From positions 1-63,831 of the forward strand of contig JBAZWO010000007.1 in assembly GCA_041660305.1 (NCBI GenBank): a stretch of DNA of 63,831 nucleotides. Direction: 5' to 3'. The first letter of the stretch is position 1. Each line of letters starts with the position of its first letter. The notes under the pieces were generated by a model. That model was given only the letters and a program-made list of their open reading frames with translations, did no database searches and had not been told where the DNA came from. This document shows, piece after piece, positions 57,031 through 57,866 of the stretch. The position numbers were made by a program, and so were the translations under genes. This stretch comes from Patescibacteria group bacterium. GTDB taxonomy: Bacteria; Patescibacteriota; Patescibacteriia; UBA9570.

Positions 57031-57100
57031 CTATGAATCAAGCAACTCCCAGTGTTTATTTCTGCTTCATGTAAAACTACGCAGAAAGTAAATAGTGGAA
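57031..57100 (+). repeat. Structured site B of the TCCCAGTGTT family
   Basis: CTATGAATCAAGCAACTCCCAGTGTT, then the imperfect hairpin TATTTCTGC-loop-GCAGAAAGTAAA, then TAGTGGAA. Confidence 0.6.
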
Positions 57101-57160
57101 GTTATAAAATTAAAAATTTATTCAACGTAGAGTAAGTAAAAAACATTGAATATATGCGTA

Positions 57161-57189
57161 TTGACATTGTCACTACAGCATGATAGTAT
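57161..57189 (+). promoter_or_regulatory. Sigma70-like promoter for relBE
   Basis: TTGACA, 17-nt spacer, TAGTAT. The -10 ends 6 nt before the relB ATG, so the transcript may be leaderless. Confidence 0.5.
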
Positions 57190-57195
57190 ATAAAC

Positions 57196-57471
57196 ATGAC
57201 TACTATTCAAGTTAGAATTGATAACAAAACCAAGGCCACAGCCACTAAAGTGCTGGATAAAATTGGTTTGGATATGAGTACCGCTATTAAAATTTACCTA
57301 CATCAGGTAATTATTAATCAGGGGGTACCGCTCAAATTAGTAACGGCCAATGGTTTCTCTGTGGCCGCAGAAGATGAAATATTACAAGCAGTAGCGGAAG
57401 CTAAGTTAGGAGAAAATGTTACTAAAAGCATGTCGGCTCAGCAAGCCGTTAAGCATTTAAAGAAACTCTGA
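57196..57471 (+). CDS. relB: RelB/DinJ-family antitoxin
   Basis: MTTIQVRIDNKTKATATKVLDKIGLDMSTAIKIYL pattern. Confidence 0.8.
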   Translation: MTTIQVRIDNKTKATATKVLDKIGLDMSTAIKIYLHQVIINQGVPLKLVTANGFSVAAEDEILQAVAEAKLGENVTKSMSAQQAVKHLKKL

Positions 57472-57486
57472 ATAATTTTAATATTG

Positions 57487-57747
57487 ATGAACATTCAGTA
57501 TCATAAGCATTTTGAAAAACGCTTTGCCAAGTTATCTCCCAAATTAAAACAAAAGGTGATAAGCGCTATTAAAAAATTTAGCACTAATCCGCATGATGTT
57601 AGATTACATAACCACGTATTGGTTGGTAGATTGGCTGGATTACGAGCGTTTTCGGTTACTGGATATATAAGAGTAGTATTTGAAGAACATGATAATTACA
57701 TTTTAGTAATAATTTTAGACGTTGGCACACATAATCAAGTGTATTAA
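57487..57747 (+). CDS. relE: RelE/YafQ-family mRNA interferase toxin
   Basis: F.KRFAKL...KKF..NPHD..L..H.L.G pattern. ATG 57487 is preferred over TTG 57484. Confidence 0.8.
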   Translation: MNIQYHKHFEKRFAKLSPKLKQKVISAIKKFSTNPHDVRLHNHVLVGRLAGLRAFSVTGYIRVVFEEHDNYILVIILDVGTHNQVY

Positions 57748-57811
57748 TTTTGTAGCTCACGATCAGGAGCGAACTGATGACACAAGGTTTTTTCTTCTGA
57801 AGTAAACTCGC

Positions 57812-57866
57812 CTATGAATCAAGCAATTCCCAGTGTTAAGCTTGGCTACGCGTAAAGCTATGCTGG
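57812..57866 (+). repeat. Structured site C of the TCCCAGTGTT family
   Basis: CTATGAATCAAGCAATTCCCAGTGTT matches 25 of 26 nt with 57031-57056. It is followed by AAGCTT-loop-AAGCT-ATGCTGGAGG. Confidence 0.6.

Follow-up and report, generated by a model that had tools for sequence, protein, structure and literature searches.

In the pdif modules of Acinetobacter plasmids, small gene modules, often toxin-antitoxin (TA) pairs, are bracketed by XerC/XerD sites and served by a housekeeping recombinase in trans, and cis-mobilisable elements without an integrase (CIMEs) are also known. The described class with which the present locus was compared comprises integron attC sites and gene cassettes, clusters of attC sites without an integrase (CALINs), and the TA cassettes of sedentary chromosomal integrons (PMC4889954; PMC13108822), and among the known classes of integron cassette are TA cassettes that have promoters of their own (PMC13108822). 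The locus lies on contig JBAZWO010000007.1 of a Patescibacteria group bacterium (assembly GCA_041660305.1), and the window analysed is this entire metagenomic contig of 63,831 nt, which has a low G+C content of 0.37. Here a relBE-type TA pair is bracketed by two copies of a 26-nt direct repeat, or box, each belonging to a structured site (sites B and C, Table 1), and a third such site (A) stands elsewhere on the contig. The reading favoured for this arrangement, at a probability of roughly 0.45, is that two members of a single structured-site family, attC-like in logic, underwent site-specific recombination through a trans-acting enzyme.

The two copies of the 26-mer (CTATGAATCAAGCAAYTCCCAGTGTT) lie 781 nt apart on the + strand and are identical at 25 of 26 positions, the C/T at position 16 being the sole difference, and they flank relB, the toxin gene, and their promoter; in these respects an earlier description made from the letters alone (the sequence-only reading) was exact. 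No further copy occurs on the contig at up to three mismatches. The same description had identity stopping right after the GTT that ends the box, which needs amending: near-identity ends there, while homology goes on, with 32 of 54 in-register matches (59%; shuffle p < 1e-5) between the B and C arms 3' of the box and a score of 26 of 42 matches that is reached by 3e-5 of random window pairs. A TTTCTYCTGAA block, conserved at 10 of 11 positions, also precedes each copy of the 26-mer by 10-15 nt, so that the arm homology and the block together define a repeated unit of about 90-100 nt. Judged by these alignments, B and C are two old members of a single family that have diverged around a hyper-conserved core of 26 nt, and they are not a fresh target duplication because their flanks are homologous but diverged. 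A transposase target-site duplication was rejected since 26 nt is too long and homology runs past it, and a duplicated gene remnant was rejected on account of stops in all frames, mismatches without 3-nt periodicity, and covarying structure. Chance similarity or an assembly artefact, for which the small copy number is the only argument, is effectively refuted: zero matches to the 26-mer are expected by chance (100 shuffles), a covariance model of the three sites gives them scores of 68-93 bits where the best background match has 13.8 bits, and the locus is not an artefact of assembly because an independent 8,027-nt Logan contig is identical to it over its whole length.

The three structured sites, A, B, and C, form a genuine family and have a hairpin in common. 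Run over the 63.8-kb contig, the covariance model returns these three members only, the next match having an E value of 0.39. Site A, placed by the sequence-only reading on the minus strand 3' of the other G+C-rich gene, does share AGCAWYTCCCAGTGTT and TAGTGGAA with B and C, and it differs in a shorter inner stem and in a base stem of ATT/AAT, not AAC/GTT. A weaker relative proposed at 59191-59236 was dropped, as it shows no fold (z scores of +1.2 and +0.8) and is missed by the model. The predicted hairpins measure 70 nt in B, 57 nt in C, and about 56 nt in A. Hairpin B is strong, with folding z scores of -3.5 on the + strand and -2.9 on the - strand as DNA and -4.3 as RNA, and hairpin A is moderate (-2.0 as DNA, -2.5 as RNA). 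In B, AAC (57044-46) pairs with GTT (57101-03), with C.A and G.G as 1x1 mismatches and one bulged G; in C the hairpin is weak (57824-57872) and AAT pairs with GTT (57869-71). The common fold opens with a base stem of 4-5 bp, in which both variable box positions take part, and proceeds inward through a C.A mismatch, CCA/TGG, and a G.G mismatch to a stem that starts with TGTT and holds an invariant G.T pair; a variable inner stem with its loop closes it. Covariation links the variable box positions to their 3' partners, the pairings being AAC/GTT in B, AAT/GTT in C, and ATT/AAT in A. Compensatory change is seen in 4 of 17 pairs, and 90% of cells are paired compared with 28-55% after a shift of the 3' partners by 1-3 columns, a pattern that, from three sequences, is suggestive of a conserved fold with compensation and upholds the proposal of one family with a common hairpin. 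The opposite-strand motifs given earlier, TTATAAC...GTTGCTT for B and TATCAAC...ATTGCTT for C, are likewise correct.

Table 1. Coordinates, strand, and G+C content of the features discussed in the text.
Feature	Position	Strand	G+C	Details
Orphan lipoprotein-like gene	56233-56973	+	0.48	FGGC lipobox; followed by site B
Stop codon to box			0.49	
Full site B	57005-57107	+		Upstream block TTTCTCCTGAA (57005-57015), box, A+T-rich imperfect hairpin (57044-57103); covariance model 93 bits
Left 26-nt box	57031-57056	+		CTATGAATCAAGCAACTCCCAGTGTT; last 13 nt are the 5' half of the hairpin B base
B arm			0.29	
Region upstream of relB			0.25	
relBE promoter, sigma-70-type	57161-57189	+		TTGACA-17-TAGTAT with TG extension; overlaps operator-like palindrome TTGACATTGTCA
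RelB/DinJ-family antitoxin gene, 91 aa	57196-57471	+		Pfam PF04221, 53.3 bits (cut-off 22.4)
YafQ/RelE/ParE-superfamily toxin gene, 86 aa from ATG	57487-57747	+		YafQ_toxin, 24.6 bits (cut-off 30)
relBE			0.35	
relE stop to box			0.42	
Full site C	57791-57885	+		Upstream block TTTCTTCTGAA (57791-57801), box, G+C-rich arm; covariance model 84.5 bits
Right 26-nt box	57812-57837	+		T replaces C at position 16
C arm			0.52	
Site A	about 40259-40317	-		Box core AGCATTTCCCAGTGTT (40313-40298), inner stem CAGCTTT/AAAGCTG, TAGTGGAA; covariance model 68.1 bits
Orphan lipoprotein-like gene	40338-40667	-	0.59	One MopE-type Cys-rich motif (PF11617, 45.5 bits); site A follows
Resident attC sites	about 37-138, 1394-1473, 1926-2027, 2385-2489, 5648-5746, 63616-63719			
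Resident attC, example				CGCACAAC-AGCGC-GTAAGCGC...GCGCCTACGCGCGAAC-GTTGTGCG
Resident attC, example	5648-5746			ACACAAC...GTTAGGC

All three sites lie 3' of acquired-looking genes and on the strand of the gene that they follow, A and B behind G+C-rich orphan genes and C behind the TA pair, which agrees with the earlier placement of the sites at the 3' ends of compositionally foreign genes. The G+C-rich islands ahead of A and B extend over 40300-40700 (0.56-0.65) and 56150-57050 (0.42-0.60), and the covariance model finds no box-hairpin behind a housekeeping gene in the 63.8 kb. The lipoprotein ahead of B has no homologue in 5.8 billion clusters, and for the protein ahead of A no homologue was found, a single MopE-type motif being its only recognisable feature; the search for a donor of the G+C-rich genes thus left both proteins as orphans. 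G+C content switches at the 26-mer, the A+T-rich B arm grouping with relBE and the G+C-rich C arm with the lipoprotein gene. Because the switch falls at the box, it suggests that an A+T-rich unit consisting of the B arm, relBE, and a box was inserted into a pre-existing G+C-rich site behind the lipoprotein gene. In its inner stem, site A resembles the C arm (AAGCTT/AAGCT) and not the B arm, so that the empty site, when reconstructed, looks like the solo site A. This arm composition is the opposite of what would be expected if each gene had brought its own complete 3' site, and is taken as a pointer only.

The position of every site just 3' of a gene, on the sense strand, is also what would be expected if the sites were not recombinational at all and were instead repetitive extragenic palindrome (REP)-like or 3'-untranslated-region structural elements, such as mRNA-stabilising or -terminating stem-loops or protein-binding hairpins, with B and C derived from a local duplication or tandem pair and relBE ending up between them. 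The invariant G.U (G.T) pair, the better z scores of B and A as RNA, and the two conserved 1x1 mismatches, as in protein-bound RNA hairpins, fit such a role, as does the outcome of the searches described below, in which neither a recombinase among the contig proteins scanned, nor an empty site, nor spread to other genomes was found. Like REP and REPIN sequences, the sites are imperfect extragenic hairpins at gene 3' ends with compensatory stem variation; unlike them, they number only three in 63.8 kb, all behind acquired-looking genes, have strongly diverged inner parts and no GTAG-type head, and are accompanied by no RAYT-like gene among the open reading frames (ORFs) scanned. A structural role would further have to accommodate one element common to three unrelated genes, all acquired-looking, with no housekeeping 3' end represented in the 63.8 kb, and a site C that hardly folds behind relE; it leaves the compositional switch at the box unexplained. 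No U-tract follows any of the stems, the terminator scan does not call the sites, and Rfam, which holds no attC family, returns no match for them. On balance this explanation, the main rival of the recombinational one, is considered somewhat unlikely, though it deserves serious weight. Known RNA families, tRNA or tmRNA targets, and intrinsic terminators were each sought at the sites and none was found.

On the recombinational reading, A, B, and C would be copies of one structured DNA site travelling with horizontally acquired gene units. In each, an imperfect hairpin of 55-70 nt has the conserved 16-26-nt box as the 5' side of its base, and in B and C the homology spans a unit of about 90-100 nt. 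The incoming relBE unit, which probably took in the A+T-rich B arm and the promoter as well as relB, the toxin gene, and the box, would have brought its own copy of the site and recombined with a copy already present behind the G+C-rich lipoprotein gene; the exchange would have taken place within the shared box or at its 3' edge and left two hybrid sites as direct repeats. Such an event would be cassette-style, of an attC x attC-like or an attP x attB-like kind, with the recombinase supplied in trans. The most plausible enzyme would be an integron integrase, an obvious candidate because real attC arrays are found on the same contig, and otherwise another tyrosine recombinase; since the contig bears these classical arrays, an integron integrase elsewhere in the genome is plausible. 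The repeats, their homology past the box, the covarying common fold, the link with acquired genes, and the compositional junction are observed, whereas the position of the crossover, the recombinase, a circular intermediate, and any present-day activity are inferred.

Near-perfect 26-nt direct repeats around a discrete 781-nt unit might also be the attL and attR of a decayed integrative element, or follow from a RecA-mediated, Campbell-type insertion using about 26 nt of homology, whether chance or shared, neither of which would involve a dedicated hairpin-site system. The likeness to the attL/attR pairs of tyrosine-recombinase elements and to CIMEs lies in the near-identical core that flanks the insert as a direct repeat and in an enzyme that would have to act in trans. 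The likeness ends there, since the insert is only 781 nt long with no integrase gene, remnant ORF, or other recombination gene between the repeats, in-silico removal of relBE regenerates no tRNA or tmRNA target, the two partner sites form hairpins and show homology past the core in both directions, over about 95 nt, and their fold recurs in a third, solo site 17 kb away; this origin is therefore judged very unlikely. With pdif modules the locus shares a small TA gene module between short sites, and it differs from them in that the sites are direct repeats with long hairpins and are not dif-like palindromes, pdif sites being inverted, 28-bp, dif-like sequences of an 11-6-11 pattern. Further candidate identities, namely dif/pdif-like sites, the initiation-of-mutagenic-homing sequence and hairpin of a diversity-generating retroelement, and IS200/IS605-type and IS91/Helitron-type ends, were judged by eye and rejected because the required architecture or enzyme gene is absent.

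Both ends of the contig carry classical integron cassette arrays with canonical-looking attC sites, on the + strand at 1-5746 and on the - strand at about 63719-62940 (window 62940-63831). The R/L boxes of this resident family read CGCACAAC-AGCGCGTAAGCGC ... GCGCCTACGCGCGAAC-GTTGTGCG, and a 3-4-nt bulge (xxAC) precedes GTT in every resident attC examined. B and C might themselves be a two-site CALIN of ordinary attC sites with cassettes in + orientation, and A a solitary decayed attC, in which case the crossover would fall in the 3' R' box, between G57101 and TT in B and between G57869 and TT in C, and the relBE cassette would span 57102-57869. The geometry of site B (xxxxAAC-5 nt-GT...hairpin...-6 nt-GTTATAA, 70 nt) is comparable to that of the resident attC ACAAC-ACGGA-GTAAACG...GTTAGGC (5648-5746), and its GTTATAAAAT resembles the resident R' ends GTTATGTAAAAT and GTTATATAAAAT. 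In keeping with integron attC sites, the present ones are imperfect hairpins of attC-like length (roughly 57-141 nt) at the 3' ends of same-orientation ORFs, with conserved outer boxes, a variable inner stem, and, in B, AAC...GTT at the stem base; the relBE unit of 768-781 nt is of typical cassette size, the orphan ORFs are of foreign composition, and, as with integron cassettes, no recombinase is adjacent and genuine attC arrays occur on the same contig. A TA pair with its own promoter also suits a cassette (PMC13108822).

Other features do not suit an ordinary attC. The AAC/GTT triplets are present in B only, pairing being kept in C and A while the triplets are not conserved, and the unpaired central spacer and canonical extrahelical-base pattern are absent, TCCCA and TGGAA pairing save for the C.A and G.G mismatches where the resident sites bulge before GTT. 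The sole bulged base, in B, is on the 3' arm of the coding strand, which we take to be the opposite of the canonical attC arrangement. An exchange at R' would leave the pattern of conservation unexplained, for the 5' half and 11 upstream nucleotides are 96% identical and the 3' half 59%, so that the conserved part is the 5' half and its upstream sequence in place of both R/L boxes; the arm compositions, which point to exchange in the 5' box, are the wrong way round for each gene having brought its own attC, and no array extends past the two sites. The resident attC family has no sequence relationship to the three sites, with no shared repeat family and no match of the A/B/C covariance model on any resident attC. 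Canonical attC membership is thus not established, and ordinary attC sites are regarded as an unlikely explanation. The integron attC-like logic of the sequence-only reading stands as regards the family, the shared fold, the position behind acquired genes, and the attC arrays that share the contig, and fails on most canonical attC features. An attC placed upstream of the GTT at 57054 (R' being GTTTATT, GTTAAGC, or GTTCAGC) was rejected, as it has no R'' complement in B or C and leaves a 12-nt one-sided loop in A; hairpins upstream of the box do occur in B and A, with z scores of -3.1 and -4.4. A bolder form of the recombinational reading, which we hold to be a long shot, is that the box-hairpins constitute a second, non-attC cassette system operating alongside the classical integron in an uncultured low-G+C bacterium, with exchange in the 5' box and not in an R'-type 3' box, in which units such as orphan surface lipoproteins and TA pairs, each with a site of about 90 nt, have been inserted by a trans-acting recombinase into one another's sites and lie scattered near the origin.

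Several results weigh against recombination between members of a site family. Site C folds no better than shuffles (z scores of 0.0 as DNA and -0.3 as RNA), and the earlier claim of a hairpin at each site accordingly holds for B and A and not for C. With three sequences only, the covariation statistics are weak, 6 of 500 shuffles reaching the observed covariation, and the arms from which the compositional argument is drawn are about 50 nt long. Contig searches find the box 5' of neither G+C-rich gene, which leaves no array logic beyond B-C. No recombinase family is matched among the 36 contig proteins scanned (34 of them against Pfam), with shorter ORFs and eleven long ones (11410-13422, 22823-24805, 26912-28480, 29600-30922, 37576-40215, 40988-42172, 42654-44024, 44029-45630, 49536-50858, 50827-52269, and 53046-54014) outside the scan. 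Exact-protein look-ups with Lpd, the lipoprotein, RelB, and the phosphoesterase recover no empty site, all assemblies that hold the neighbouring genes sharing the arrangement. Searches of GTDB genomes, JGI metagenomes, IMG/VR, plasmids, and phages turned up the site nowhere else, and the whole claim rests on one contig.

The searches behind this last statement were of several kinds. An exact-pattern scan with a 21-mer gives no match in 185,579 GTDB species genomes, JGI metagenomes, and IMG/VR, and blastn against plasmid and phage collections gives nothing relevant. A gapped pattern (16-mer plus TAGYGG) has no match in IMG/VR and seven in GTDB, compared with about 17 expected by chance on our own estimate; these fall in unrelated taxa and in one Dolichospermum repeat, and none of the loci scores with the A/B/C covariance model. 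The model is also without a match in 708 kb of loci from distant relatives and in loci sharing the bare 16-mer. The Dolichospermum repeat (L003 7803-7838, L005 3658-3693, L008 3295-3330) contains CAGCAAYTCCCAGTGTT, followed by AGGTACATATCTAGCGGGCAAGATGCCCGCACCAC, and we take it to be an unrelated cyanobacterial repeat because of its lack of a model score. Metagenome relatives of the flanking phosphoesterase are at most 44% identical and share no neighbours or synteny, and the searches yielded no relative near enough to reveal an unoccupied site. The sequence-only reading had named, as findings that would speak against it, a motif found only here and relatives that carry relBE without the repeats; both are what was observed, and both refute it weakly, carrying little weight because the lineage is essentially unsampled (RelB 58%, phosphoesterase 44%, no synteny).

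The insert itself has the make-up of a type II TA module, with adjacent small antitoxin and toxin genes, family domains, and a palindrome-bearing promoter. The toxin matches YafQ_toxin, ParE-like_toxin, and ParE_toxin, all under their cut-offs, and is 45-65% identical to toxins that partner RelB homologues; the promoter/operator region with its palindrome is conserved in relBE relatives. The nearest RelB relatives, at most 58% identical, sit in several unrelated contexts, and in seven distinct contexts of relBE relatives (loci L010-L017, L100, and L101) neither the box, nor a model match, nor comparable repeats were found. A 15-nt direct repeat around the L012/L013 module was set aside as probably due to chance, being absent from the orthologous L100 locus. 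In L016, which holds the closest relBE relative (58% RelB identity), two identical 21-nt copies of CGATTCCCGTCACCCGCTCCA lie upstream at 883-903 and 1027-1047, 144 nt apart; the sequence resembles a tRNA 3' end, and the pair could represent two adjacent tRNA genes or a tRNA gene with a duplicated att core.

Should the box-hairpins be working recombination sites, cassette-type gene capture in this lineage would not be limited to integron arrays or to canonical attC structure. This would bear on the origin of CALINs and solitary attC-like sites and on the spread of TA modules and orphan genes among bacteria that have small genomes and are poorly sampled. The locus would in that case also supply a small, naturally occurring hybrid-site pair for which a circle junction and an empty site can be clearly predicted. 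As nothing more than 3' structural elements, the box-hairpins would amount to a minor annotation detail.

The contig is chromosomal and spans the replication origin, with rnpA, yidC, dnaA (34571-35962), and dnaN (36171-37277) at the minimum of the cumulative GC skew, and its other genes are housekeeping ones, including those for trigger factor, NusA, PBP1A, TyrRS, and glycine-cleavage and lipoate functions. In the origin region (33963-37575) a DciA-like gene stands beside rnpA, yidC, dnaA, and dnaN, and A+T-rich palindromes are found at 36119-36270.

Around site A, an imperfect 14-nt direct repeat (CCAAAAAAGGCCTA / CCAAAAAAGACGTA, 12 of 14 identical) at 40233-40246 and 40885-40898 brackets an island made up of a hairpin, the G+C-rich gene, and the site; it is T/A-rich and at about chance level for 800 nt. 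Strong local hairpins lie 50-80 nt upstream of the starts of both G+C-rich orphan genes, at 56094-56163 and 40746-40831 (z scores of -6.1 and -5.5). They are among the strongest on the contig, are unrelated in sequence to one another and to A, B, and C, and are not terminators of neighbouring genes because they fall in divergent promoter regions; they may mark the 5' borders of acquired units. A second TA pair, a Phd/YefM antitoxin with a PIN toxin, adjoins the G+C-rich gene ahead of site B at 55312-56010 on the - strand, with an operator-like palindrome, TACTTGTCAAGTTGACAAGTA, at 55987-56007 and no box-hairpin site, so that the interval from lpd to the phosphoesterase gene consists of three consecutive accessory units.

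The two end arrays are inverted relative to each other, both point toward the origin, and both run off the contig ends; no intI was seen. Their cassette ORFs include DUF5343, HEPN_Swt1, HXXEE, and DUF6714 proteins. The right contig end is 100% identical in other assemblies (ENA ERZ27249449 and JGI 3300014208), whose contigs break at the same attC repeat. A 156-nt repeat that starts TAAAAATCGAATAAACAAGCCTGTTTTTGCGTGTGATCTGG is present at 3030-3185 and 5060-5215 (copies 94% identical), nested in long attC-like sites, and a partial inverted copy occurs at 62887-62942, directly after the right-array attC, where GTT would be expected; the repeat may be a small attC-targeting element or an array terminus. 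Between two left-array cassettes, at 4165-4216, where no attC of the resident family is found, lies a 23-bp hairpin with 96% complementarity, which could be a terminator or belong to a third class of site.

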